From Clostridia bacterium (GTDB lineage Bacteria; Bacillota; Clostridia; TANB77; RGIG9151), in NCBI GenBank assembly GCA_017934955.1, contig JAGBIO010000034.1:2123-66122 (forward strand): DNA of 64,000 nucleotides. Reading direction: 5' to 3'. The stretch's first letter is position 1. Each line of letters begins with the position of its first letter. The position numbers and the translations under genes are program-made. Positions 4,073 through 56,340 of this stretch are shown here, in pieces. Below the pieces are notes generated by a model that was not told where the DNA came from, did no database searches, and saw nothing but the letters and a program-made list of their open reading frames with translations.

Positions 4073-4122
4073 GAAGATTGATAGAGATAGTTGTTACTAT
4101 CCAACCTCAAATTTATAAAAAA

Positions 4123-4326
4123 GGCACAAATGTTGTGTGGACAGCATGAATGCTGTCCGTACGGATGAAAGAGGCAGTGGCATTGTAGGGACAGCATTTA
4201 TGCTGTCCAAAGAAAAAGCAGGACAGCATGAATGCTGTCCGTACGGATGAAAGAGGCAGTGACATTGTAGGGACAGCATTTATGCTGTCCAAAGAATAGG
4301 CAGAGGCTTAGAATTAGGACACAATA
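4123..4326. repeat. REP cluster of four type-A REPs in alternating orientation (two ~62-bp BIME-like units) plus a partial type-B REP.
   Basis: Direct reading shows ggacagcatgaatgctgtccgtacggatgaaagaggcagtgRcattgtagggacagcatttatgctgtccaaagaa, repeated twice. Confidence 0.9.
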
Positions 4327-5085: not shown

Positions 5086-8000
5086 ATGATGAAGAATAAA
5101 TCGGACAGAGCGGTTTCTAAGATGAATCGGGATTTTTCGGCTATTTTTTCGGTGTATCGGAGGTTGAATGATAATCGAAAATTGAAGTCGAATTTGGTGC
5201 CGGCGAGTGAGTGGCTTTTGGATAATTTTTATATTGTGGAGGAGCATACCAAGCAGATTAAGAGGGATTTTACGAGTAAAATGTATCGGGATTTGCCATT
5301 GGTGGAGAGTGGATATACCAGAGCGTTTACAATTGCTCGTAAGATTGTGAGCGAGAATGATGCAAAAATTGATGAGAATGTGATTGAGAGTTTTATTAAT
5401 AAGTATGAAGAAGTGACGCCGCTTTATATGCGGGAGATTTGGTCGCTGGGCGTTTGTATTCGGATGGCGTTGATTGAGAAAATTCGGGAGATTAGCGATA
5501 AAATCAGTAAAACGTACAGCGAGTGGGAGCGTGCGGAGCGTTGGTTGGAAGAGTATAATTTGAATGCAGAGTTGAAACTTCCGGATGTTGGGGAGAATCC
5601 GTCTTTTTATGAGCATCTTTCGTATCAATTGCGGAGAATGGGAAAAAACGGTGTTGTGATATTAAACCGTATTGATCGGTACATAGAGAAATACGGGACG
5701 TCTTTGGAGTTGATTTCGCGGAAAGAGCATAGCGTGCAGGCGGCGATGAAGATTACTATCGGAAATTGCATCGGGAGCTTGAAGTCGATTTCTACGATTG
5801 ATTGGAATGAGTTGTTTAATCGTGTGAGCGAGATTGAACGAATTTTTTATTCGGAAAAATCCGGTGTGTATCCGAAGATGGATTTGGAGAGTAAAAATGT
5901 TTATCGAAGCCGGGTGGAGAAGATTGCAAAGGATTTTGCAATTTCAGAATTGCATGTGGCACGAAAAGTTTTGGCTTGTGCGGATGAAAATTTTGATGAT
6001 GAGAAATACGGGCATATCGGGTATTATTTGTTTGATAGAGAGGGGAGAAGAGAACTTCTTAACCGGTTGGATGTGAAGATTTCTTATGGGTATTTGTTTC
6101 GGGAAAATTTGAAGCAGAATCCGTTTGGAATTTATTTGTTGACGATTTTGCTGTTTTCGGCTTTGTCAACGGGACTTTTGGCATGGGTAATTAAGGCATT
6201 TTACGGTGGCTTTTCCGCTTGGAGTTATGTCGGCTTGGTGTTGGCTTTTCTGATTGCGTTTGATGGCGGGGTTTGCTTTGCGAATTATTGGTTTAGCAAA
6301 GTTTTTAAACCACGTGTGATTCCGCGGTTGGATTTTATGGAGGGTGTGCCGAAAGAGGCGACTACGATGCTGATTGTGCCGACGTTGCTGTCTTCGGAGA
6401 AGCGTGTGAGCGAGATGCTTTTGAATTTGGAAAAGTATGCGGCGGGAATCGATGACGATCATGTGTTTTATACATTAATCGGAGATGCGCGTGAGTATGA
6501 TTTGGAGCTTTGGGAAGCGGATGAGAAGATTATAAAGGTCGGCGAGGAGCTTGTGGCCGAGATGAATTTACGGGCAGGAAAGACGCGTTTCTTTTTTGTG
6601 TATCGAAAGCGATTTTTTAATGCCTCTGAGAATAAATGGCTTGGTTGGGAACGAAAAAGAGGGGCAATTTTGAAATTTAATGAGTTCCTTCAAGAGGGAA
6701 ATAAGGGTGATTACCGTTTCGTTTCGGAGGGATTTGAGGAGCTTCCTAAGATAAAGTATGTTTTGACGTTGGATGCGGATACTTTTGTTCCGATTAATGA
6801 GGCAAAAAAATTGATTGGTGCAATGGCGCATCCGCTGAATAAGCCGGTTTTGAATGAAGAAGGAACGGCGGTTGTTTCGGGGTATGGAATTATTCAGCCT
6901 CGTATCGGGATTGATGTGGTGAGTGCGAATAAGAGTCGCTTTTCAAAGATTTTTGCAGGAACCGGCGGAATTGATCCGTATGTGTGCGCGTCGTCGGATA
7001 TTTATCAGGATTTGTTTGGAGAGGCGATTTTTACCGGTAAAGGAATTTATGATATTGCTGTTTTCCAGAAGGTATTAGCCGATACGATTCCGGATAATGC
7101 GATTTTGAGCCATGATTTATTGGAGGGTTCTTATTTACGGGCGGGTCTTGCGACGAATATTGAGTTGATTGACGGATACCCTGCTCGCTATAATGCGTAT
7201 GCGATGAGAGCGCATCGCTGGGCGAGAGGGGATTGGCAGGTCTTACCGTGGCTTTCGGGGAGAGTAAGGAATCGAAATCATGAATTGGTGAAAAATCCGA
7301 TTGATGGGGTTTCGAAGTGGAAGATTTTCGATAATTTGCGTCGTACGTTGACAGCGCCGTTGATGATGCTTTTAATCTTTTTGTCGTTTTTTGTGTTACC
7401 GGAGTCCGCGTTACTTTGGAGTGTGTTTGCGGTTGTTTTGGGGATTCGTGGAAATAAAAAGCAATTTTTGTATCAGTTGCTGTTTTTGCCGTTTCAAGCG
7501 TCTTTGATGCTGAATGCGGTGGTTGTAACGCTTTATCGAATGTTTTTTGTGAAGAAGAATTTATTGGAATGGGTTACCGCAGCGGATATGGAGACGAAGC
7601 TAAAAAATACCGTCGGGAGTTTTTATCGTTTGATGAATCGCAGCCTTTTGATTTCGACGGTGATTTTCTTGGTAGCGTACTTTGTGAAGGGCGATGCGAT
7701 TTCGATTTATTTTTCGGCGTTCTTGTTCTTTTTATGGTGGATTGCGCCGCTTGTGGCATTTCATATCAGCTTATCGATTCGAGAACGACAGGAACGTTTG
7801 GATAACGCGGAAATTGAGGAATTACGAGAATTTGCAAAGAGAACGTGGTCGTATTTTGATACCTTGATGAATGAGGAAAATCATTTTTTACCGCCGGATA
7901 ATTTTCAAGAGGAACCGCCGAATGGGGTGGCGTATCGGACTTCTCCGACGAATATCGGATTGGGATTGTTGGCGATTATCAGTGCGTATGATCTTGGTTT

Positions 8001-17575: not shown

Positions 17576-18166
17576 ATGAAGAGCAAAGGGAACGTTTTTA
17601 TAAATGCAGAGGACTTATATCAAGGGAAGACTGCTAAGATTGTGTATAACGGATCTTTAGCAAAAACAGGAAGTGACGCATTATATATTCATTTAGGATT
17701 TGGTATGATGTGGGATAATCTCACAGAAATTAAAATGACAAAAACAAATGAAGGATTTGTAGCAGAGGTACCGATTGCAAAGGCTGATTCGATTAACTTC
17801 TGCTTCAGAGATTCGAATAATAATTGGGATAATAATTCTTGCAAGAATTATTCTTACGCTGTTTCGAAACCGAAGATGATTAAAGCGACAGCTGAAACGA
17901 TCATTACTCCGGTAACGAATAAAGTAGAAGCCAAAATGTCTGAAATTGCAAAGATTATTGAGAACGCAACTCCTGCTGTTCCTAACGAACTCAGTTTGGT
18001 TCCTTCCAAGAATATTACGGAAGCGTATATTCAGAGAAAGAAGAATAAGTTGATGTTCTATAGATTGTTTAATTTTATTCCGAGAGAATTAACCGGAAAC
18101 GGAAAGAAGAACAAGACTTCCGGCGGATTGTTCAGCGGATTGTTTGGAAATACAAGAATTAAATAA
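17576..18166 (+). CDS. Hypothetical protein with a CBM25/26-like carbohydrate-binding N-domain. Its C-terminal ~40 aa are duplicated downstream.
   Basis: GGAGG RBS present. W/Y-rich beta-sandwich-like pattern (YIHLGFGMMWDN, NNNWDNNSCKNY). Confidence 0.35.
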   Translation: MKSKGNVFINAEDLYQGKTAKIVYNGSLAKTGSDALYIHLGFGMMWDNLTEIKMTKTNEGFVAEVPIAKADSINFCFRDSNNNWDNNSCKNYSYAVSKPKMIKATAETIITPVTNKVEAKMSEIAKIIENATPAVPNELSLVPSKNITEAYIQRKKNKLMFYRLFNFIPRELTGNGKKNKTSGGLFSGLFGNTRIK

Positions 18167-18176
18167 GAGATGAAAA
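18035..18176. repeat. Direct repeat, copy 1. Covers the 3' end of the 17576 gene and its terminator leader. Copy 2 is at 21655..21778.
   Basis: About 125 bp near-identical apart from two small indels. Flanks the 3.5-kb surface-protein module. Confidence 0.85.
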
Positions 18177-18200
18177 GACGGTGCGGTACCGTCTTTTTTG
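18167..18200 (+). terminator. Rho-independent terminator.
   Basis: AAGACGGTGCGGTACCGTCTTTTTTG. Confidence 0.7.
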
Positions 18201-18382
18201 CAATTCAGACTATAACTTATGGAGAACGTTTGCGCCATTATTTACCCAATTTCATATTGTAACTTATTTACTATAAAACCAATTATTGTTATACTTTTTT
18301 TTACTCTGCTGTAATGAAATTTTCTGTTAAGAAATAGGAAGAGAATGCCGATATTTAGAAAGAATGAGGAGGTGTACCCGAA

Positions 18383-18478
18383 ATGACTGAATTACAGAAT
18401 TTATTAAGTGAAATGAACAAAAATATTTGCGAAATCAATATGGTAAAAACTGTAATTGGGGGGGGGGTACACTATTAG
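18383..18478 (+). other. 31-codon leader ORF containing a G10 homopolymer (18458..18467), upstream of the surface-protein gene.
   Basis: GGAGG at 18368 precedes ATG at 18383. The G10 run is translated as GGG-GGG-GGG-G and stops at TAG 18476. A run this long is exceptional in this AT-rich genome. Confidence 0.6.
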
Positions 18479-18581
18479 ATAAAAAGAATAAAGAAGAAAT
18501 AATAAAGCATAGGGAAGAAAGTAGTTTAAAGTCAGAAGGGCTTTAGACTGCTTTCTTTTTGTGTTTTAAAGGAGGAGCAAG

Positions 18582-21500
18582 ATGAAAAAAGCAGTTATGG
18601 CGATGATTTCATTTGTAGTATTATTCAGCGTAGCGATGGGATATACTTTAACAATCCATGAGGAAAGCAGGGTTGTTACGGAAGAGGTGAGTGAAGGCGA
18701 AACGGTTACGATAGGCTTACCGGATCGTTCGCGAGCTAAATATACGGTAAATCAAGGAAATCCGCTATTAAGGGATTTTGGAAATCGATGTAAATTTATT
18801 ATGCCGGCTGAAAATGTAGAAATTACAATAGAAAAAGTATATGTAATAACTTTTAACAGTAACGGAGGAAATCGGGTAGTTACTAAAAAAATGGTTGCCG
18901 GGGAACCATACGGAACTCTGCCCATACCGAGCAAAAGCGGAAGCACGTTTGCCGGATGGTATAGCGACAGTGGACTTACAACAGAAGTAACAAGTACCGA
19001 TACCGTACCGGCGAGTGACCATACGTTATATGCAAAATGGAATCAAACAGAAGTCTTTACATTTGGGACAAACGGGAACACAACATGGGCAAAGTCCCAA
19101 GGGACAACAGTAAGTATCAGCGGTATAGCTGTAAAATCCGGAACTGCCAAATATCTCTGGAAACAAGGAACCGCAACAGCGGATGAAATCAGTAGTAGCG
19201 GAACAAGTTTTACAAGTGGAGATACAGTTACAAAGTCAGATGGAACAGGAAACAATTGGCGATTAAATGTTTATTGTGAAGACACAAATGAGAATCAATA
19301 TATAGCAGCAAGTGATGTATTTTATTTAGATAATACAGCTCCAACTGTGACATTAGCAAGCAAACAATTCAAAATGTTTCCGGACTTACCATATAGATTG
19401 AGTAACATAACTGAAGAAACGGTAGATGGGGTAAAAACATACACAACAACAAGTACGATACCAATCATTTATTTAGAAACAGGACTAAAGAAAGGAATTA
19501 GCGGAGTTACATTCAGCATTTCTCCGGCACCGAGTGAAGACTTACCGATCAGAATTTATACCAACGAACACACTACTTTGGAAACGTCTATTTTAGGGTC
19601 AGTCCCTGCAGGTAAGTCAAGAGCAACAATAGAAATACCGGAAGGAGACTATACGCAGATTGGCGTAAGGGTCGGATCTGAAGCAGGATTAACTTTTACG
19701 ATGAATCCGCTTGATGTTTTTGCAACGGATAATGATTTGTCGCATCCAACTTATATAAGATTTAATTTAAGCGGAACAGACGCTCATTCCGGAAATATAA
19801 CATATCAAGTAAGCAGCGATAACAAAGCAACTTGGAGTGACGTGAGCGGAACTCAATATACGGCAAAAGAACCTGGAACCTACTACTTTAGAGCCAAAGA
19901 TAAATTAGGAAATATAAGTGAAGCAATAGGTGGTTATACACACACAAGATCCTACAAACTTTACTTCAACAGTAACGGTGGAAGTACTGTAGCAACTCAA
20001 ATAGTAAAAAACGGAGATACTTATGGAACGTTACCAACGCCAACAAAGACAAATTATACATTTGCCGGTTGGTACAAAGAAAGTAGCTTAACCAATCAAG
20101 TAACAAGTAGTACTACAGTAACTGCAACGGGTAACCATACCTTATATGCGAAATGGACGGGAGTAAAATCAAACGTAACGTTAAATAATCAAAGTGCGAC
20201 AACAGCGGGAACAACGAGTGTAACAGCAACGTACGGAAGTGCAATGCCAAGTATAACAAAACCGTCAAAAACCGGTTATACTTTCGGAGGCTACTATACG
20301 GAAACAAACGGAGGAGGAACGCAGTACTACAAAGCAGACGGAAGCAGTGCAAAGAACTGGGATAAGACTGCGGCGACAACGTTATATGCAAAATGGACAG
20401 TCAATACGTATACGGTAACGTTAAATAATCAAAGTGCGACAACGGCGGGAACAACGAGTGTAACAGCAACGTACGGAAGCGCAATGCCAAGTATAACGAA
20501 ACCGGCAAAAACCGGTTATACGTTCGGTGGTTACTATACAGAAACAAACGGAGGAGGAACGCAGTACTATAAGGCAGATGGAAGCAGCGCGAAGAACTGG
20601 GATAAGACTGCAGCAACAACGTTGTATGCAAAATGGACAGCGAATACGTATACGGTAACGTTAAATAATCAAAGTGCGACAACAGCGGGAACAACGAGTG
20701 TAACGGCGACGTACGGAAGTGCAATGCCGAGTATAACGGTACCTACGAAAACCGATTATAGGTTTTTAGGATATTACACCGGAACAAATGGAACTGGTAC
20801 GCAGTATTATACATCAACAGGGACAAGTATAAAAAATTGGGATAAAACAACTGCGACAACACTTTATGCGGCCTGGAAAAGTGTAATTCCAACCTATACG
20901 TATACAGGAACTTCAAGTACCTCCAAAGATGATACATATTGGTATATTTATTTGAAATCCAGTGGTAATTTAACCTTTAGCGAAGCACAGTCAATCGACA
21001 TATTCCTTGTAGGTGGAGGCGGAGGCGGATATAATCAATCTTCTGGAACCGGACGTCGTGGAGGCGGAGGAGGTGGTGGATATACTGCCACACACAAAGG
21101 AATATATGCCGCTAATGGTACTACTTATTCTATAGTAGTTGGAGCCGGTGGTGCAGTGAACTGCAAAGGTGGTACAACATCTGCGTTTGGTAAATCTGTA
21201 AGTGGCGGATATCCTGGAACACACTGTGATAATATTAAAGATGGAGGTGATGGCGGCTCCGGTGGTGGTGCCGGTGCAGATTTTAGAACAAGTTCTAGTT
21301 ATTCCGGTACAGCCGGTGCAAGTAATGGTAACAGTGCAACAAGTGTATCCTATGGTAGTCCTTGGAACGACTATAACTATGGAGGAACAGGTCAGGGATC
21401 TACCACAAGAGCCTTCGGAACAGGTGCACTCTATGCCGGTGGAGGAGGCGGCGGTGGACAAAATCCAAGCTCCGGTGGTGCCGGTGGAGGTGGTGCCGGT

Positions 21501-21641
21501 GCAGGTAATGTCGACGGAATTTCCGCTGTTGCCGGAACTGCCAATACCGGCGGCGGAGGCGGCGGTGGTAGTGGAGATTCTACTTGGGCACGTGGTGCAG
21601 CCGGTGGTTCCGGTGTTGTAATTATCCGCGGTCTTCATTAA
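18582..21641 (+). CDS. Large secreted surface protein with Listeria-Bacteroides (Flg_new-type) repeats and a C-terminal glycine-rich (Gly_rich-like) domain.
   Basis: Signal peptide present. Multiple units read YTFAGWY...TLYAKW. Three identical 80-aa repeats. C-terminal GGGGGGY/GGGGGG tracts. Confidence 0.7.
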   Translation: MKKAVMAMISFVVLFSVAMGYTLTIHEESRVVTEEVSEGETVTIGLPDRSRAKYTVNQGNPLLRDFGNRCKFIMPAENVEITIEKVYVITFNSNGGNRVVTKKMVAGEPYGTLPIPSKSGSTFAGWYSDSGLTTEVTSTDTVPASDHTLYAKWNQTEVFTFGTNGNTTWAKSQGTTVSISGIAVKSGTAKYLWKQGTATADEISSSGTSFTSGDTVTKSDGTGNNWRLNVYCEDTNENQYIAASDVFYLDNTAPTVTLASKQFKMFPDLPYRLSNITEETVDGVKTYTTTSTIPIIYLETGLKKGISGVTFSISPAPSEDLPIRIYTNEHTTLETSILGSVPAGKSRATIEIPEGDYTQIGVRVGSEAGLTFTMNPLDVFATDNDLSHPTYIRFNLSGTDAHSGNITYQVSSDNKATWSDVSGTQYTAKEPGTYYFRAKDKLGNISEAIGGYTHTRSYKLYFNSNGGSTVATQIVKNGDTYGTLPTPTKTNYTFAGWYKESSLTNQVTSSTTVTATGNHTLYAKWTGVKSNVTLNNQSATTAGTTSVTATYGSAMPSITKPSKTGYTFGGYYTETNGGGTQYYKADGSSAKNWDKTAATTLYAKWTVNTYTVTLNNQSATTAGTTSVTATYGSAMPSITKPAKTGYTFGGYYTETNGGGTQYYKADGSSAKNWDKTAATTLYAKWTANTYTVTLNNQSATTAGTTSVTATYGSAMPSITVPTKTDYRFLGYYTGTNGTGTQYYTSTGTSIKNWDKTTATTLYAAWKSVIPTYTYTGTSSTSKDDTYWYIYLKSSGNLTFSEAQSIDIFLVGGGGGGYNQSSGTGRRGGGGGGGYTATHKGIYAANGTTYSIVVGAGGAVNCKGGTTSAFGKSVSGGYPGTHCDNIKDGGDGGSGGGAGADFRTSSSYSGTAGASNGNSATSVSYGSPWNDYNYGGTGQGSTTRAFGTGALYAGGGGGGGQNPSSGGAGGGGAGAGNVDGISAVAGTANTGGGGGGGSGDSTWARGAAGGSGVVIIRGLH
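20161..20880 (+). repeat. Three near-perfect tandem copies of a 240-bp unit inside the surface-protein CDS.
   Basis: taacgttaaataatcaaagtgcgacaac recurs at 20181, 20421 and 20661 with an exact 240-bp period. Confidence 0.9.
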
Positions 21642-21654
21642 GTGTTGCTCTATT

Positions 21655-21778
21655 GAAAGAATAAGTTGATGTTCTATAGATTGTTTAATTTTATTCCGAG
21701 AGAATTAACCGGAAACGGAAAGAAGAACAAGACTTCCGGCGGATTGTTTGGAAATACGAAAGTTAAATAAGAGATGAA
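21655..21778. repeat. Direct repeat, copy 2: an orphan 3' gene fragment (KLMFYRLFNFIPRELTGNGKKNKTSGGLFGNTKVK).
   Basis: It matches 18035..18176. No start codon, and an in-frame TGA lies immediately upstream. Confidence 0.85.
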
Positions 21779-21806
21779 AAAAGGCGACGAAAGTCGTCTT
21801 TTTTTT
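21778..21806 (+). terminator. Rho-independent terminator.
   Basis: AAGGCGACGAAAGTCGTCTTTTTTTT. Confidence 0.6.
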
Positions 21807-21859
21807 GAATAGGCTGACTTTTATGTAAAACTGTGGTAAAATAAAGTTAAAATAGAAAA

Positions 21860-22025
21860 AAGTTACTATTCAGACTCAAATCTATAGAAAAAGTACAAGT
21901 ACTGTAGGGACAGCATTCATGCTGTCCACAGAATAGGCAGAAAAGCAGGACAGCATAAATGCTGTCCCTACAATAAATTGAGAAAAATTTAAGGTCATAT
22001 ATATAGGTAAGTCTGACCTGTAACA
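21860..22025. mobile_element. MITE-like unit: a REP doublet (21903..21972) bracketed by terminal inverted repeats GTTACTATTCAGACT / AGTCTGACCTGTAAC.
   Basis: Both TIRs and both REPs were read directly. The same architecture recurs at 23340..23545 and 32183..32360. Confidence 0.55.
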
Positions 22026-22040: not shown

Positions 22041-23273
22041 ATGAGGGTAATTGTGATTGGCGCAGGTGCGTCGGGGCTTATGGCGGCGGGTGTTGCGGCT
22101 AAGAAAGATGACGTGCTTGTGATTGAGAAGAATGATAGGGCAGGGAGAAAATTAGCGATTACGGGGAAGGGCAGATGCAATATTACAAATGCGGCGGATA
22201 TTGGTGATTTTATCGATATGGTGCCGGGAAATGGGAAGTTTTTGTATTCTGCGTTTTATTCTTTTACGAATGAGGATGTAATTGCGTTTTTTCGAGAATT
22301 AGGGGTTGAAACGAAAGTGGAACGTGGCGGAAGAGTTTTTCCGGTTTCGGATTCGGCGAAAGATGTGGTAAATGCGTTGGTGAAATTTTGCAGGAATACC
22401 GGTGTAAAATTTCGTTATAATAGCAGTGTGAAAAGGATTTTAACGGAAAATAAAGCTGTAAAAGGCGTTATTTTGCAGGATGGGTCAATCTTGGAATGCG
22501 ATAAAGTGATTGTGGCAACCGGGGGAAAGAGTTATCCGGCGACGGGGTCGACAGGCGCTGGCTATCGTTTCGCGGAGGAAGCGGGACATCGAGTTCTTCC
22601 GATAAAACCGTCTTTAGTGGGATTGGCGGCGAAGGAAGGGTATTGTAAGGAGTTGCAAGGGCTTTCTTTAAAAAATGTTGCGTTTACTTTAAAAACGAGT
22701 GTCGGAAAGGAAATTTATTCAGATTTTGGAGAGATGCTTTTTACGCATTTTGGCGTGTCCGGACCGATTGTGTTGAGTGGAAGCCGATGGTTGCATCCGT
22801 TTATGAAAGAGGATAGAAGTGTGACAGGTGTTAAGGCGGAGATTGATTTGAAACCGGCGTTGGAGGAAGAGCAGTTAGATAAGCGATTATTGCGGGATTT
22901 TGAAAAGTATCAAAATAAACAGATAAAAAATGCATTGTTTGATTTGCTTCCGGAAAAGTTGATTCCTGTCGTGATTGCATTGACGAAAATTGAGGAAGAA
23001 AAGAAAGTGAATGAAATTACGAAGGAAGAACGAAAGCGAATGGTTGAAATTTTGAAACATTTTCCATTGACAATTGCGGGACTTCGACCGATTGATGAGG
23101 CGATTATTACGGCGGGTGGCGTTTGTGTGGATGAGATTGATCCGGGAACGATGGAGTCGAAGCTGGTGAAAGGTTTGTATTTTTGCGGAGAAGTTTTGGA
23201 TTTGGATGCCTATACCGGAGGTTTTAATTTGCAGATTGCCTTTTCGACCGGATATTTGGCGGGGCAGAGTTAA
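22041..23273 (+). CDS. HI0933/YhiN-family FAD-dependent flavoprotein (NAD(P)/FAD oxidoreductase).
   Basis: N-terminal Rossmann motif VIVIGAGASGLMAA. 410 aa is typical of the family. AAGGAG RBS present. Confidence 0.75.
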   Translation: MRVIVIGAGASGLMAAGVAAKKDDVLVIEKNDRAGRKLAITGKGRCNITNAADIGDFIDMVPGNGKFLYSAFYSFTNEDVIAFFRELGVETKVERGGRVFPVSDSAKDVVNALVKFCRNTGVKFRYNSSVKRILTENKAVKGVILQDGSILECDKVIVATGGKSYPATGSTGAGYRFAEEAGHRVLPIKPSLVGLAAKEGYCKELQGLSLKNVAFTLKTSVGKEIYSDFGEMLFTHFGVSGPIVLSGSRWLHPFMKEDRSVTGVKAEIDLKPALEEEQLDKRLLRDFEKYQNKQIKNALFDLLPEKLIPVVIALTKIEEEKKVNEITKEERKRMVEILKHFPLTIAGLRPIDEAIITAGGVCVDEIDPGTMESKLVKGLYFCGEVLDLDAYTGGFNLQIAFSTGYLAGQS

Positions 23274-23339: not shown

Positions 23340-23545
23340 TTTTTGTTATTATTCAGACTCAATAGCCTTTAAGTTTCGAACTGAACTATTAAATTCTACC
23401 GAAATAAAGGCGAAAACGCTGTAGGGACACAATTTATTGTGTCCGCGGAATCGTCAGATAGTCGAAATAGGACACAATAAATTGTGTCCCTACAATGATA
23501 ATACAATCATTGAAGAAAGATATAGTCTGAAAAGTAACCTTTTTT
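23340..23545. mobile_element. MITE-like unit: a type-B REP doublet (23419..23493) within GTTATTATTCAGACT ... AGTCTGAAAAGTAAC inverted ends.
   Basis: Read directly. Confidence 0.5.
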
Positions 23546-26051: not shown

Positions 26052-26254
26052 TATAATGATGGTACAAACACCGTAGGGATAGCATTTATGCTGTCCATGA
26101 AGTAGGCAGAAAAGCAGGACAGCATAAATGCTGTCCGTACAATAATTGGTACCATTAATTTGTCAAGAAGGCACAAACACTGTAGGGACACAATTTATTG
26201 TGTCCGCGGAATAGGCAGGTGGTAGAATTAGGACACAATGAATTGTGTCCGTAC
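26052..26254. repeat. REP cluster: two type-A plus two type-B REPs arranged as two inverted pairs.
   Basis: Reads ccgtagggatagcatttatgctgtcca...aggacagcataaatgctgtccgtac ... ctgtagggacacaatttattgtgtccgcggaataggcagg...ggacacaatgaattgtgtccgtac. Confidence 0.9.
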
Positions 26255-26341
26255 AAGTCGTATTCTGACGATATTTTTTTGAAAAATACAAAATTTGAAT
26301 CTGACCGGTAACCAAGAGTTTTATGGAATATTGCCAAATCA

Positions 26342-29765: not shown

Positions 29766-30246
29766 GTTAATTCCTCCGTTATTGTATGAAGTTTGACTGA
29801 GATTTTTTTACGTTTTAGAAAGTTTTTCACATCATTTTCAGATAGTTATGTTCAACGTTTCGACGAACATTTAACGTAAGTAGTATATATCATATTTATG
29901 CAAAATTCAACAGATATTTTTACAATAGAGATAGGCGTTATAAGGTATAAAAAAGCACAAACACTGTAGGGAAGATATAGTATGAATAATAACAAGTTGC
30001 AGTTTTTTTTGAAAATTTTAAAGCATTAGTTTTAAGAATAGGTCATGTCTTTATGGATTGGGAAAAATATTATAAAAGTCAAGTATAATAGGTTAATAAT
30101 ATTTAGGTACTTCAAGATGTGATGTTTTAAAGAATTACTGACATATGATTGACTAACCTACAATGTTGTAGTTTTTTTGTATTTTTATTTTATTGCTTTT
30201 AGTTAATATAGAGTATATAATAAAAATAGAAGAAACGGAGGATTTT

Positions 30247-30672
30247 ATGACAAAAGAAGAAAAGTATACTCATTAGGAAAATTTAGCGAAATATGATTTA
30301 GAGACTGCTGAAGTTATGTTAAAAAGTGGGAGACATATGTATGTTTCTTTTATGTGTCAACGAGCTATTGAAAAACTGGCAAAAGCATTACATGTATTAT
30401 ATTTAGATAAAGAAGCACCAAAAACTCATAATATAGTTACTGTAATGAATTTGGTATTTGAAGGAACAACGGATGATGGTATAAAAAATTCAATAGGTAA
30501 GTATAAAGAATATAAGTCTTTTATGGTTGAATTGCTGACATATTATATTTCTGAAAGATATGTTGAATATAAAAGTAAAATAAATCAAACTTTAAATCAG
30601 CAAGTTTGTAATGAAATAATATCGAAAACAAAGGAGGTATTTACATGGTTACAATCTCTAAAGAACTTTTAA
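30247..30672 (+). pseudogene. HEPN-domain protein gene with an in-frame amber codon at codon 10. The ORF track restarts at 30316.
   Basis: A strong RBS (GGAGG, 7-nt spacer) precedes ATG 30247. The translation reads MTKEEKYTH*ENLAKYDLETAEVML.... The TAG falls where HEPN proteins of this type have a conserved Trp, so the likely change is TGG to TAG. Confidence 0.5.
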
Positions 30673-30971
30673 AGATAATTAATAATTATGTGTTAGAGTT
30701 ATCCAAAGAAATTAATATTAATAAGGTTATATTATTTGGTTCTTATGCAAAGGGAACAAATCATGAAGATAGTGATATAGATTTAGCGATTTTTTCTGAT
30801 GATTTTTCGAACATGGATAGAATAGAAGCACTTAAATTTTTACTATTGAAAGCAAGTGATTTAACAGTTGATTTACAACCACAACCTTTTACATTGGCAG
30901 ATTTAGAAGATGAGGATAATTGGTTGGCTAAAGAAGTTGAGGAGACAGGTATCGAACTAAATGTAGCTTAA
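30645..30971 (+). CDS. Nucleotidyltransferase (MNT-type) partner of the HEPN gene.
   Basis: Carries ILFGSYAKGTNHEDSDIDLAIF. Overlaps the HEPN gene end. Confidence 0.65.
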   Translation: MVTISKELLKIINNYVLELSKEININKVILFGSYAKGTNHEDSDIDLAIFSDDFSNMDRIEALKFLLLKASDLTVDLQPQPFTLADLEDEDNWLAKEVEETGIELNVA

Positions 30972-31148
30972 ATAAATAATTTCAAGACTTTGTCAAGTAA
31001 AGTGTGTAATTTTTTTCATCCATACTCAATTTAGAAATGTTGATGTTCATTTTCAACTGAAAAAAGTGTGTTAGAAAGAATTTACAATTTTTAGGTATCT
31101 CAAATAAAGAGATTACTGCTAATCCCTTAGTTTGAGGTATTAGTTATA

Positions 31149-31688
31149 TTATAAGTTTTCATACAATTCAATTCTTGATTGCATTTCAGCATTCATAGAG
31201 AGCTGATTACGAACCATAGACCAGTTTGGGACAGGACGATTATTCCATTTTTTGTAAAGCTCTGTAATTCGCAAATAGAGTAATTTTAGTAAAGCATTTT
31301 CATTTGGAAATGATCCCTTTTTTGTTACTTTTCTGAAACTGGAGTTAACGCTTTCTATTGCGTTGGTTGTATACATTACTTTCCGTACAGCACTACCGTA
31401 ATTAAATAACTGTTCTACGTGATTCCAATTTCTTACCCATACTTCAACAGCCCCGGGATAAGAATTCCATACTTGTTTAAATTTTTCAAATTCAGCCTCT
31501 GCAGCTTTTAAGCTTGGTGCTCCGTATATTTTCTTTAAATGTCCGGTAAACGCTTGATAATCTTTGCTTGGTACGTATTTTATAGAGTTACGGATTAAAT
31601 GTACCATACATCTTTGAACTATAACATTTTTGAATATAGATTTCGCTCCTTCTTCTAATCCGGAAACTCCGTCGCTGGATGTTTTGAT
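31149..31688 (-). pseudogene. IS256-family (Mutator-type) transposase, C-terminal ~178-aa fragment.
   Basis: The conserved C-terminal region reads CMVHLIRNS...YTTNAIESVNSSFRKVTK. The N-terminal two thirds are absent. The upstream part of the annotated ORF is unrelated sequence. Confidence 0.6.
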
Positions 31689-31739
31689 ACTAAATTTTAT
31701 GGATTTAATGAAATTCGTAATGAGAATGATATTGAGAAC

Positions 31740-31982
31740 ATGAGATTTCAAGGGGGCGGTGGTACTGATTTTAATGTGGCAGTAAATGCGTTTTCTCGTA
31801 GAGTAGAAAATAAGATAATTTTTACTGACGGTGAGGCACCTATGCCGGAAAAAGCAATGGATGCAATATGGATAGGATTCGGAGAAGATAAGATTAAACC
31901 TAAAGGTGGTAAAGTAATTACTATTACAAGAAGACAACTAGAACGATTATGTAGATTTCATGATATAGATATGAGTAGATAG
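31740..31982 (+). pseudogene. C-terminal fragment of a vWA-domain protein.
   Basis: GGGGTDFNVAVNAF...IIFTDGEAPMPE resembles the end of vWA_3-type domains. No N-terminal part, and it abuts the IS256 fragment. Confidence 0.3.
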
Positions 31983-32182
31983 TATTAGAAATAAGGTATA
32001 AGTAAAAATATGAATAAAAATATTGCAAAATTTTGTTGTAATTTTTAGAATATCCGTAAGAAATAAAAAACAGGTAGAATTGTCTTTTTTGGTGCTTTAG
32101 TAGAAATTGTCCATTTGTATTATATGTTGGTACAAAAAAACTTGTAAAACGTAAAGAGCTTGAGCAATTTAGCAGCGATACG

Positions 32183-32360
32183 GTTACAGGTCAGACTCAA
32201 ATTGTTACAAATATATCGGGACGTCGAGGACGCCGTCCCCTACAATGACGGCACAATCATCGTAGGGACAGCATTTATGCTGTCCTGCTTTCTGCCTTTC
32301 CTGTGGACAGCATAAATGCTGTCCCTACACTAGATTGTGCCATTTTTATAAATTTAAGTC
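32183..32360. mobile_element. MITE-like unit: a REP doublet within GTTACAGGTCAGACT ... AGTCTGAACAATAAC ends.
   Basis: The left TIR is the exact reverse complement of the right TIR of the 21860 unit. Confidence 0.5.
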
Positions 32361-32478
32361 TGAACAATAACGCGATACGCTAATAATTTAGTAGATAAGG
32401 TTGAAAAAACAGAGCTAATGTGGTATAAATAATTTATTGCATTGGCTCTTTTTTCCTGTTGAGGAAAGGAGTTAATAG

Positions 32479-33028
32479 ATGGGGAAAAACTTAAAAGTAA
32501 AAGAATGTGGCAAAGGTATTTGCCAACGGAAAGATGGCTTGTATTACGCCCGTTATGTAGATAAAGCAGGTAAACGACACGAGAAATATTTTAAGACTGT
32601 CCCGGAAGCGAAAAATTGGATTGAGGATTCTAAATACGCTGACAAACACGAGGATGTATTTGTTGCTGATGATACTATTGTAGATGAATGGTTTGATTTT
32701 TGGATAGTTATAATCAATATGCTTTGATTTTAGAGACAGGACTTAGGACAGGAGAAATGATTGGTTTAACTTGGGATGCAGTCGATTTTGAAAAGCGAAC
32801 AATAACTATCAATAAAACTTTAGAGTATCGTCAAAAACAAGAATATTGGAGTGCCGGTCCTCCAAAGACACAAAGCAGTTATAGAACAATTCCCCTTACC
32901 GATTGTGCCTACAATATTGCAGGAATTACTGGGACATAGTAGTATAAAAACAATTATCGATAGGTATGTTCACGTTACAACTGATTCAATGGAGGAAGCT
33001 ATAAAACAATTAAAAAAAGGGTTTTAGC
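32479..33028 (+). pseudogene. Tyrosine recombinase (phage or ICE integrase) remnant in three frame-shifted pieces.
   Basis: The N-terminal arm-binding-like segment reads KDGLYYARYVDKAGKRHEKYF. The core start reads ETGLRTGEMIGLTWDAVDFEKRTITINKTL...GPPKTQSSYRTIPL. The extreme C-terminus reads LLGHSSIKT.IDRYVHVT and includes the catalytic Tyr. Most of the catalytic domain is missing. Confidence 0.55.
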
Positions 33029-33120
33029 ATAAAACTTTATGCGTAAATGGTGTAAGAATGGTGTAAAGCTCATTTTTGAAACACTTATAAACCTTGAAAA
33101 TAAAGGAGATGTAATAAATT

Positions 33121-46143: not shown

Positions 46144-46960
46144 GCAGGACAGCATGGATGAGGAAGAAACTTCGAATGGACAGCATGAATGCTGTCCGTA
46201 CAGAAAGAGGCAGAAATTTTATATGAATAGAATGAAAGAAGCAGGAACTTTGTAGGGACAGCATTTATGCTGTCCACATACAAGGAAAAAAATAAAAAAC
46301 AGAGGACCGGAGAAATGGAGTAAAAGTTGAAGTTTAATGGTAGAAAAGTAATTAGAAAGTCCGGGTATAATTATTCGTTTTCAGGTTGTTATTTTATTAC
46401 AATTTGTTCGAAGGAGAAAAAGTTTATTTTTGGCGATATAAAAGAACGAAAAATGTATTTAAATGAAGTTGGGAAACTTACGAAATTAGAAATTCTAAGG
46501 TTAAATAATGAAAAAGATGTAGATGTTGTTAAATTTGTTATCATGCCCAATCATGTGCATTTATTAATTTTCTTAAAAAGTGATGCGAATTGTTTTATAG
46601 AACGTAAAGGGAAAAAATTAGAAGATGTAAGAGTACTTGCGGAGGCACGTATTCCGAAAATAATACAACAATTTAAATCAAGGGTTTCAAGATGTGTTGG
46701 AACAAGCATTTGGCATTCGAGATATCATGATCATATTGTGAGAAATCAGCGGGAATATAAGATGATATATAATTATATAGAGAATAATCCGATGAATTGG
46801 GACAAAGATTGCTATCGATAGGAGGTAGAATGGACAGCATGAATGCTGTCCGTACAGAGGGAAAGAGACAGGAACTTTGAATGGACAGCATGAATGCTGT
46901 CCGTACAGAAGGAAAGAGACAGAAACTTTGAATGGACAGCGTTTATGCTGTCCACAGACA
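46144..46960. mobile_element. REPtron-like block: a REP cluster (46144..46290), the RAYT gene, then a second REP cluster (46822..46960).
   Basis: The gene sits immediately between two sets of inverted type-A REPs of the same family that is dispersed through the window. Confidence 0.7.
46327..46821 (+). CDS. IS200/IS605-like Y1 HuH transposase, interpreted as a REP-associated tyrosine transposase (RAYT).
   Basis: HuH motif reads IMPNHVHLLI. The C-terminal region reads WHSRYHDHIVRNQREYKMIYNYIENNPMNW, with the Tyr and Q/NNP motif of the Y1_Tnp family. 164 aa single ORF with no TnpB. TTG start 6 nt after GGAG. Confidence 0.7.
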   Translation: MKFNGRKVIRKSGYNYSFSGCYFITICSKEKKFIFGDIKERKMYLNEVGKLTKLEILRLNNEKDVDVVKFVIMPNHVHLLIFLKSDANCFIERKGKKLEDVRVLAEARIPKIIQQFKSRVSRCVGTSIWHSRYHDHIVRNQREYKMIYNYIENNPMNWDKDCYR

Positions 46961-48394: not shown

Positions 48395-48712
48395 AAAAGG
48401 CAGGAATTATGTAGGGTGGACAGCATGAATGCTGTCCGTACGGAAGAAAGAGGCAGGAATTATGTAGGGTGGACAGCATGAATGCTGTCCGTACGGAAGA
48501 AAGAGGCAGGAATTATGTAGGGTGGACAGCATGAATGGTGTCCGTACGGAAGAAAAGCAGAAATTTTGTGGGATGGACAGCATGAATGGTGTCCGTACGG
48601 AAGAAAAGCAGAAATTTTGTGGGATGGACAGCATGAATGGTGTCCGTACGGAAGAAAAGCAGAAATTTTGTGGGATGGACAGCATTTATGCTGTCCGTAG
48701 AAGAGGCAGAAA
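48395..48712. repeat. Tandem array of seven REPs, all in one orientation. Three 50-bp units are followed by three 45-bp units carrying the variant GGACAGCATGAATGGTGTCC, then one more.
   Basis: Identical inter-repeat sequences, so these are REP tandems and not CRISPR. They translate as an artificial mutS N-terminal extension in the ORF track. Confidence 0.9.
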
Positions 48713-55760: not shown

Positions 55761-56144
55761 ATGATGGAGAGTATTTTTGTTTTAATATTTGGTACTTTTA
55801 TTGGTAGCTTTCTGAATGTATGTATTTATCGAATTCCTAAGGGCGAGACGATTGTATTTGGGCGATCTCATTGTATGAGTTGTCAGAAAGAAATTAAATG
55901 GTATGATTTAATTCCTGTGATAAGCTATTTAATTTTAGGTGGTAAATGCCGATATTGCAAAGAGAAACTCTCTTTGCAATATCCGTGCATTGAACTTATG
56001 AATGGATTAGCTTATTTTGTTTTGTATAGAGTTTTTGGTTTTCAAGTTTTCTTTTTTATTTCTTGTGTGGTGTTTTCGGTGGTGCTTGTTTTTTTGATGA
56101 TACAGGTGAATCGCAGGTGTGAGAAGAAAGGCGGGACAGCATGA
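55761..56144 (+). CDS. pilD: Prepilin peptidase N-terminal Zn-binding domain only. The A24 catalytic domain appears to be missing.
   Basis: Carries CMSCQ...x21...CRYC (DiS_P_DiS domain) and ends after 127 aa. The last 8 codons (...RRCEKKGGTA) run into the first REP of the 56130 cluster. Confidence 0.55.
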   Translation: MMESIFVLIFGTFIGSFLNVCIYRIPKGETIVFGRSHCMSCQKEIKWYDLIPVISYLILGGKCRYCKEKLSLQYPCIELMNGLAYFVLYRVFGFQVFFFISCVVFSVVLVFLMIQVNRRCEKKGGTA

Positions 56145-56340
56145 ATGCTGTCCGTACAGAAAGAGAAATAAGCCGAATAGGGACACAATAAATTGTGTCC
56201 GTACAGAGGGAAAGAGAAATAAGCAAAATAGGGACAGCATGAATGCTGTCCGTACAGAGGGAAAGAGAAATAAGCAAAATAGGGATACAATAAATTGTGT
56301 CCGTACAGAGGGGAAGAGAATACAAGTACGAATGAGAATT
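56130..56340. repeat. REP cluster: four REPs alternating type A and type B, all the same orientation, with agagRgaaagagaaataagc linkers.
   Basis: Read directly. Confidence 0.9.

Follow-up and report, generated by a model that had tools for sequence, protein, structure and literature searches.

REP doublets (REPINs) normally depend on a tyrosine (HUH) enzyme, the RAYT, and they are thought to be confined to vertical inheritance. Some insertion sequences (IS) target REPs: IS1397, ISKpn1 and ISPpu9/10 interrupt the REP or the BIME, and the REP halves are then found outside the IS. In the IS66 family, the ISBst12 group is defined by a lone transposase ORF, the accessory genes tnpA/tnpB being absent (PMC12898284), and one of its members, ISDge4, whose activity was demonstrated experimentally, was described in a 2026 paper with the ends GTGACTACTCAGCA and GTAACTGCTCAGCA and an 8-bp direct repeat (PMC12898284).

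Here, we will examine a window from an uncultured Clostridia MAG, placed close to Acetivibrio/Ruminiclostridium; by window we mean the whole stretch of 64 kb of DNA that was analysed. An earlier note on this DNA had proposed a second, non-autonomous mobile layer that carries REPs as cargo, or else REPs that insert preferentially into such elements. In our reading, to which we give a probability of about 80%, three units that we call E1, E2 and E3 are MITEs with IS66-type ends, which carry as cargo a REPIN of a separate REP/RAYT system.

The REP/RAYT system of the window

The palindrome GGACA-N2-AT-N2-AT-N2-TGTCC is present 54 times in the window, for 0.15 expected, and these copies form 20 clusters. 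The REPs of the + strand have a GTAG 5' tag and a TT loop, and those of the - strand have a GTAC tag and a TC loop. They are arranged in head-to-head pairs, in tail-to-tail pairs and in 51-nt tandem arrays of up to six copies (e.g. 48418-48696 and 56134-56302). The tail-to-tail pairs, with spacers of 19-25 nt, are found in E1 to E3 and in a fourth locus, E4, and also elsewhere without terminal inverted repeats (TIRs); the MITE-borne doublets carry GTAG on both arms, and the free doublets of the window carry GTAG/GTAC. The idea that tail-to-tail doublets could be nearly exclusive to TIR-bearing units was dropped, since at least five further doublets without such ends lie in 6.4 kb of extra scaffold that adjoin the window.

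The window also encodes a RAYT of 164 aa (46327-46821, + strand), whose gene has REPs on both sides (46178-46275 and 46832-46953). Its product matches Pfam Y1_Tnp (E 3.2e-7) and NCBIfam REP_Tyr_transpos (E 1.3e-17, below the curated cut-off), and it shows an HVH motif and a C-terminal YHDH...Y region. This RAYT is likely the enzyme of the REPs and not that of the TIRs. Together, the palindromes and the RAYT make up a classical REP/RAYT system such as those already described (PMC3116915, PMC3733652). As free REP doublets are common and a RAYT gene is present, the REP layer is independent, so that the MITE would have acquired the REPIN and not the reverse. In a sister species (L041 and L042, position 22), we also observed a REP variant, GGTCAGCAT..ATGCTGACC, which shows a compensatory A-T to T-A change of the stem compared to GGACAGC...GCTGTCC.

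Five loci with common inverted ends

The motif GTTAC-N3-TCAGACT (12 specified bases) has 12 matches with up to two mismatches in the 64-kb window, versus 2.6 +/- 1.5 expected, and this count was attained in 0 of 100 shuffles. The seven matches with zero or one mismatch are exactly the six paired ends of E1-E3 and a solo right end at 26298-26312, which the earlier note had rightly seen, placing it at 26296. The "footprint" that it had also reported at 18206 did not hold: this site (18197-18216) is a mere half-site with two mismatches, indistinguishable from the ~2.6 matches expected by chance. In the relaxed form GTTAY-N3-TCAGACT, the motif of the window comes down to three inverted pairs (E1, E2 and E3), the solo right end, and a deleted remnant at 29949-29993. 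Each of the three inverted pairs contains a tail-to-tail REP doublet, and REP hairpins are enclosed by, or abut, every one of these loci, so that REP sequence is found at 5/5 TIR-bearing loci of the window. Rfam and tRNA scans of the window gave no matches.

E1 (21862-22024, + strand, 163 bp) lies between the ends GTTACTATTCAGACT (21862-21876) and AGTCTGACCTGTAAC (22010-22024), and an A-run borders it on both sides. It contains a type A REP doublet at 21904-21971, with GTAG on both arms. The predicted RNA fold is one long hairpin, in which the ends are paired and the REP doublet is at the tip (-60.7 kcal/mol, z -8.2). E2 (23345-23538, + strand, 194 bp) has the ends GTTATTATTCAGACT (23345-23359) and AGTCTGAAAAGTAAC (23524-23538) and a type B doublet, GGACACAATTTATTGTGTCC, at 23421-23493. 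It is inserted just past the terminator T-tract of the gene at 22041-23273, and CTTTTTT is duplicated at both of its junctions. E3 (32183-32371, - strand, 189 bp) belongs to the subfamily of E1, in the opposite orientation, and has the ends GTTACAGGTCAGACT ... AGTCTGAACAATAAC; it holds a doublet at 32262-32328 and an extra degenerate REP at ~32218-32245. With its target duplication, E3 extends over 32175-32379: the duplication is a perfect and non-repetitive 8 bp, GCGATACG, at 32175-32182 and 32372-32379. The three pairs of TIRs around REP doublets that had been reported are thus real, with coordinates that were slightly off (the right edge of E3, for instance, is at 32371 and not at 32360), and the left end of E3 is, as had been stated, the exact reverse complement of the right end of E1.

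There is no ORF of at least 60 aa within E1 or E2, and E3 holds just two short overlapping reading frames that run through REP sequence (32160-32315, + strand, and 32275-32367, - strand). A weak promoter-like site (AGGACA-16-TACAAT, 9/12) that faces the downstream gene is formed in both E1 (21947-21974) and E2 (23469-23496) by the second REP, through its outer arm and its CTACAAT flank.

The two other loci, E4 and E5, are decayed relatives of E1-E3. E4 (26073-26312, + strand) is made of two REP doublets, of type A (26073-26140) and of type B (26182-26254), 88% identical to those of E1 and E2, followed by the solo right end AATCTGACCGGTAAC at 26298-26312; no left end is detectable in E4. E5 (29949-29993, + strand), which had been missed by the earlier note, is a deletion remnant in which the 5' flank of a REP, GCACAAACACTGTAGGGA, runs directly into AAGATATAGTATGAATAATAAC, a right end with its subterminal sequence; the latter, AAGATATAGT, matches that of E2. 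In all, 4 of the 20 REP clusters of the window carry IS66-type ends (E1-E4). We considered whether the other REP clusters could be decayed MITEs and rejected it, as the best end-like matches at the 16 other clusters are at background level, with the exception of one marginal site. The latter (4093-4107, GTTACTATCCAACCT), which is situated just before the REP cluster of 4139-4290, has three mismatches, its first 8 nt being those of the consensus end; it may be a decayed left end, at a level of similarity that is within chance.

E3 and E5 are found in a decayed mobile island (29800-33100). Besides these two elements, the island comprises a putative HEPN/nucleotidyltransferase-like pair (30316-30971, recognised by eye from the translations), a 5'-truncated IS256-family transposase gene (31149-31937, - strand) and fragmented tyrosine-recombinase-like ORFs (32479-33027). 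The IS256-family transposase next to E3 was considered as the source of the ends and discarded: it is a C-terminal fragment only, and the ends match IS66-type elements.

Empty sites, target duplications and the insertion sequences with the same ends

We compared the window with contigs from five related lineages that carry an orthologue of the flavoprotein gene (22041-23273), with protein identities of 87, 87, 86, 84 and 81-82%. The sites of E1 and E2 are unoccupied in these lineages (L037/L038, L039-L042, L172, L173 and L174), that of E1 being empty in L037, L039, L041, L172, L173 and L174 and that of E2 in all the relatives compared. The similarity between the flanks and the window stops at the outer edges of the inverted repeats, and the breakpoints fall exactly there. 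The E1 site reads AATGAAAAAAGGAG in L037 versus AGAAAAAA, E1 and AAAAAAGGAG in the window, and the E2 site reads GAGTTTTCTTTTTTAAACC in L037 versus GAGTTTCTTTTTT, E2 and CTTTTTTAAAC in the window. Because both intergenic regions align up to the ends and are devoid of everything in between, the inserted segment is the whole unit, with its ends and its REP doublet. The earlier note had left open that the ends might belong to a conserved promoter or terminator, which is contradicted by their absence from the orthologous intergenic regions.

This presence/absence comparison covers E1 and E2, no orthologous locus having been found for E3. No intermediates were found in the closer relatives (P0003-P0005), in which the sites are simply empty, and we found neither a REP-free MITE at the same site nor a REPIN-free copy in the ~70 kb of this genome that were read. 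As there is no such intermediate, the order of events given below is deduced.

Two other insertions of these regions deserve a description. The closest relative has its own long-palindrome insertion of ~270 bp (L037, 3160-3440), between the stop codon of the flavoprotein gene and its terminator, which has no relation to the GTTAC...TCAGACT family and probably represents another MITE. The window itself contains a segment of ~3.6 kb (18041-21780) that is missing in the relatives, where the CBM53 gene directly precedes the flavoprotein gene. This segment is bounded by an exact 92-bp duplication of the 3' end of the CBM53 gene (18041-18132 = 21657-21748) and carries a gene (18582-21641) whose product, of 1019 aa, is a Flg_new/Gly-rich surface-type protein; tandem repeats of 240 bp occupy 20175-20894 within this gene. 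Ten consecutive G (18458-18467), ~115 bp upstream of the start of the gene, are a possible slipped-strand phase-variation tract.

Relative to the empty sites, an A- or T-run is duplicated at the junctions of E1 and E2. As the duplicated target is such a homopolymer run, the length of these duplications is certain to 6-7 nt only, and the flanks match at 5/8 in strict register. The target duplication of E3 has its counterpart in the wider family of elements with the same ends, for which we pooled the copies from genomes and metagenomes into 40 unique short pairs. Their 8-bp flanks are identical in register in 16/40 cases and match at 7 or more of the 8 positions in 20/40, versus 0/40 with 8/8 identity at offsets of 1-8. 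Flanks that agree in this way are what a DDE transposon making an 8-bp staggered cut would leave as its signature.

These elements extend well beyond this genome. When 185,579 species genomes were scanned for the two ends as one pattern, 18 elements were found, in eight Clostridia MAGs. They measure 167-188 bp, a size range that is set by the gap limit of the scan, and the window's own copies are not among the matches. Among these MAGs are Clostridium sp. CAG:465 and bins of rabbit, chicken and human-gut origin, and the ends of their elements read GTTACTATTCAGACTA. More generally, elements delimited by the same ends, of 120-330 bp and for the most part of ~180 bp, are present in metagenomes and in other Clostridia MAGs. 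The interiors of the elements of the other MAGs are mutually unrelated and do not contain the REPs of this genome; a REP doublet interior was found only in this genome among the same-ended MITEs examined. No autonomous element was found among the first 18 genome loci, just mini forms of 49 and 84 bp (L004, 5616-5664 and 1987-2070), which comprise little beyond the two ends and have flanks that match at 6/8. A scan of viral contigs with the 16-mer gave 16 single, unpaired matches, which we took as chance.

The autonomous partner was found in metagenomes. The scan with the 16-mer gave at least 120 loci, with inverted pairs at IS-like distances among the matches listed. In particular, L084 contains at 5359-7129 an element of 1771 bp with identical 16-nt ends and one ORF of 500 aa, the remaining ORFs being short and antisense; L129 carries a decayed copy. 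The 500-aa protein matches Pfam DDE_Tnp_IS66 (PF03050; E 2.9e-23, 83 bits, above the 23.1 cut-off) and DUF6444, and it reaches 140 bits (E 1e-40) with NCBIfam transpos_IS66, below the curated cut-off of 180. A homologue that is 69% identical (P0129) is present on 85 contigs, within an element of 1769 bp whose ends, GTTACTATTCAGAGT, have one mismatch. This second IS shows perfect 8-bp duplications at three separate sites, AATTTGTA (L164), TAGTTTTA (L165) and GTCTAAAT (L166). The nearest annotated plasmid relatives are IS66-family elements of Geobacillus, Bacillus and Clostridium, with at most 31% identity. Most IS66 members are listed with a GTAA start, and the window-type ends start with GTTAC instead; the core GTnACTnnTCAG is common to the window-type ends and to those of ISDge4. 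From the ends of these two IS, their transposase matches and the ISDge4 core, we assign the window ends to an ISBst12-like IS66 lineage, of which E1-E3 are the putative MITEs. The earlier note had suggested looking for target-site duplications, for empty sites in related strains and for a full-length autonomous element with matching TIRs, and all three were found. The autonomous element is a 1.77-kb ISBst12-like IS with 8-bp duplications, present in other organisms and not here: neither the 64-kb window nor the 6.4 kb of extra scaffold revealed an IS66-family transposase. In our reading, a matching transposase would exist, or have existed, in this genome.

The same ends are also found around other DNA. 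Two units of 1.6-1.9 kb (L063, 2124-4003, and L116, 2572-4166) have IS66-type ends and a passenger gene, whose product has an N-terminal hydrophobic, putative pilin-like segment (by eye) and a weak FGE-sulfatase-like match (E 2.7e-4, just below the Pfam cut-off). In L063, the left end, the passenger gene and an adjacent MITE moved jointly, in a unit of 1880 bp that is flanked by a perfect 8-bp duplication, AATATATT, which shows that foreign DNA can be moved by these ends.

Nesting of the two layers and comparison with known systems

The following mechanism would account for these units. An IS66-family (ISBst12-group) single-ORF DDE transposase, supplied in trans, would bind both inverted ends of 15-16 bp, and its 8-bp staggered cut at insertion would give rise to the 8-bp target duplication. 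The REP doublet between the ends would be carried passively, and the composite would have landed at several intergenic sites. REP turnover would have continued within the copies, with E3 gaining an extra REP and the subfamilies carrying REPs of type A or type B. Indeed, the alignment of E1 with the reverse strand of E3 starts at the end and continues over the subterminal sequence and the entire doublet; both have the end variant GTTACAGGTCAGACT, and their main difference is the extra degenerate REP of E3. Since they are alike through the doublet and lie at unrelated loci with different flanks, the composite appears to have moved when it already contained the doublet. A second subfamily, characterised by a type B doublet, is made up of E2 and the 29949 remnant, which have their right end in common; as E2 is unlike E1 and E3 in both REP type and subterminal sequence, the interior would have been acquired, or replaced, at least twice. 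Thus, of the two possibilities raised at the outset, a mobile layer with REPs as cargo is favoured, and the insertion of REPs into such elements contributes too: E3 shows that some REPs were gained inside the copies.

The explanation that comes next, which we find rather unlikely, is that the MITEs were initially free of REPs and that doublets then entered each copy independently, the hairpin-forming interior being a preferred target of the REP/RAYT system. The extra REP of E3, which E1 does not have, would be in line with it, as would the different REP types of E1/E3 and E2/E5, the two doublets beside one end in E4, and the same-ended MITEs without REPs in other genomes. However, E1 and E3, which lie at unrelated loci, agree in their doublet and its position, in their subterminal sequence and in their end variant, so that the same point would need to have been hit twice. 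Moreover, REP sequence is present at all five TIR-bearing loci when, as estimated from their coordinates, the REP clusters cover a few percent of the window, and a REP-free copy is absent from the 70 kb read.

A second alternative, which we consider very improbable, is that the inverted repeats flank invertible segments, i.e. phase-variable switches upstream of genes that a site-specific recombinase would flip. The repeats do bound segments of 160-195 bp directly upstream of + strand genes, and E1 and E3 are oppositely oriented, but this does not fit with the 8-bp direct duplications outside the repeats, with orthologous sites that are devoid of the whole unit, with the presence of the same ends at the termini of transposase-encoding IS, nor with the neighbouring genes, as no recombinase gene lies beside E1 or E2 and the integrase-like ORFs next to E3 (32479-33027) are fragmented and decayed. 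Finally, a regulator's operator, in line with the two-block form of the motif (5 + 7 bases around a variable 3-base spacer), which resembles a protein-binding site, or a chance co-occurrence with REPs, is the least credible explanation of all, given that none of the 100 shuffles reached the observed count, that the motif is missing from the orthologous promoter regions of the relatives, and that it is present at the ends of insertion sequences.

Taking E1-E3 as IS66-type MITEs with a REPIN as cargo, we infer how the REPIN was first acquired as well as any effect on the neighbouring genes. E1 separates the ribosome-binding site of the flavoprotein gene from a promoter-like site upstream (21814-21842, + strand, CTGACT-17-TAAAAT with a TG upstream), which the relatives conserve, and its transcript would place a very stable hairpin of 163 nt in the 5' untranslated region of this gene. 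E2 lies between the terminator of the flavoprotein gene and spoIVB. Insertions such as these two may alter expression, and metagenome assemblies are broken by them.

Each unit nests two non-autonomous layers that depend on different classes of transposases: the REPs on a Y1/HUH RAYT, and the ends on a DDE enzyme of IS66 type. Should the composite indeed move in one piece, then a foreign enzyme can spread REPs, and perhaps transfer them, which, if true, bears on the models that tie REPIN populations strictly to one vertically inherited RAYT. We would go further only tentatively, at somewhat less than even odds: REP doublets may have gained a second route of spread by hitch-hiking in MITEs moved by an IS66-type DDE transposase, with ends that repeatedly capture short hairpin-forming DNA. 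Such repeated capture would explain why same-ended MITEs have a different interior in each Clostridia lineage. The analysis also defines a widespread and previously undescribed ISBst12-like IS lineage, with its MITEs, in gut and rumen Clostridia.

How do these elements compare with the known systems? The partner IS is like those of the ISBst12 group (ISDge4, ISBst12, ISGst1 and ISGka4) in its size of ~1.77 kb, its single DDE_Tnp_IS66 transposase of ~500 aa and its 8-bp target duplication, and it has short ends with the core GTnACTnnTCAG, as does ISDge4. As differences, the linked transposases fall below the NCBIfam IS66 cut-off, and they are at most ~31% identical to those of the annotated plasmid-borne IS66 elements. 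E1-E3 resemble IS-derived MITEs in that they are non-coding derivatives of 160-195 bp bounded by the ends of the partner IS, but their interior is a REP doublet and not an IS remnant. With their 20-nt palindromes, their 5' GTAG/GTAC tag, their 54 copies in 64 kb arranged in inverted doublets and arrays, and a RAYT gene flanked by REPs, the REPs of the window are like the REPINs/BIMEs mobilised by RAYTs (Bertels & Rainey 2011, PMC3116915; Di Nocera et al. 2013, PMC3733652). Classical REPINs, however, have no DDE-type TIRs or target duplication, whereas some REPINs of the window sit in a TIR-bounded unit that makes such duplications. The physical association of a DDE-type element with REPs is reminiscent of IS1397, ISKpn1 and ISPpu9/10, with the difference that here the doublet is intact and inside the transposon ends. 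As in transporter IS and in the cargo-carrying unit of L063, the same ends mobilise DNA that is unrelated to the transposase, but the cargo in the window is a non-coding REP doublet of 70 bp. E1-E3 therefore do not represent a new kind of element: two kinds of mobile DNA, each of them known, are nested in an unusual way. They are MITEs of an undescribed ISBst12-like IS66 lineage, whose less usual feature is a REPIN interior that comes from a second mobile system.
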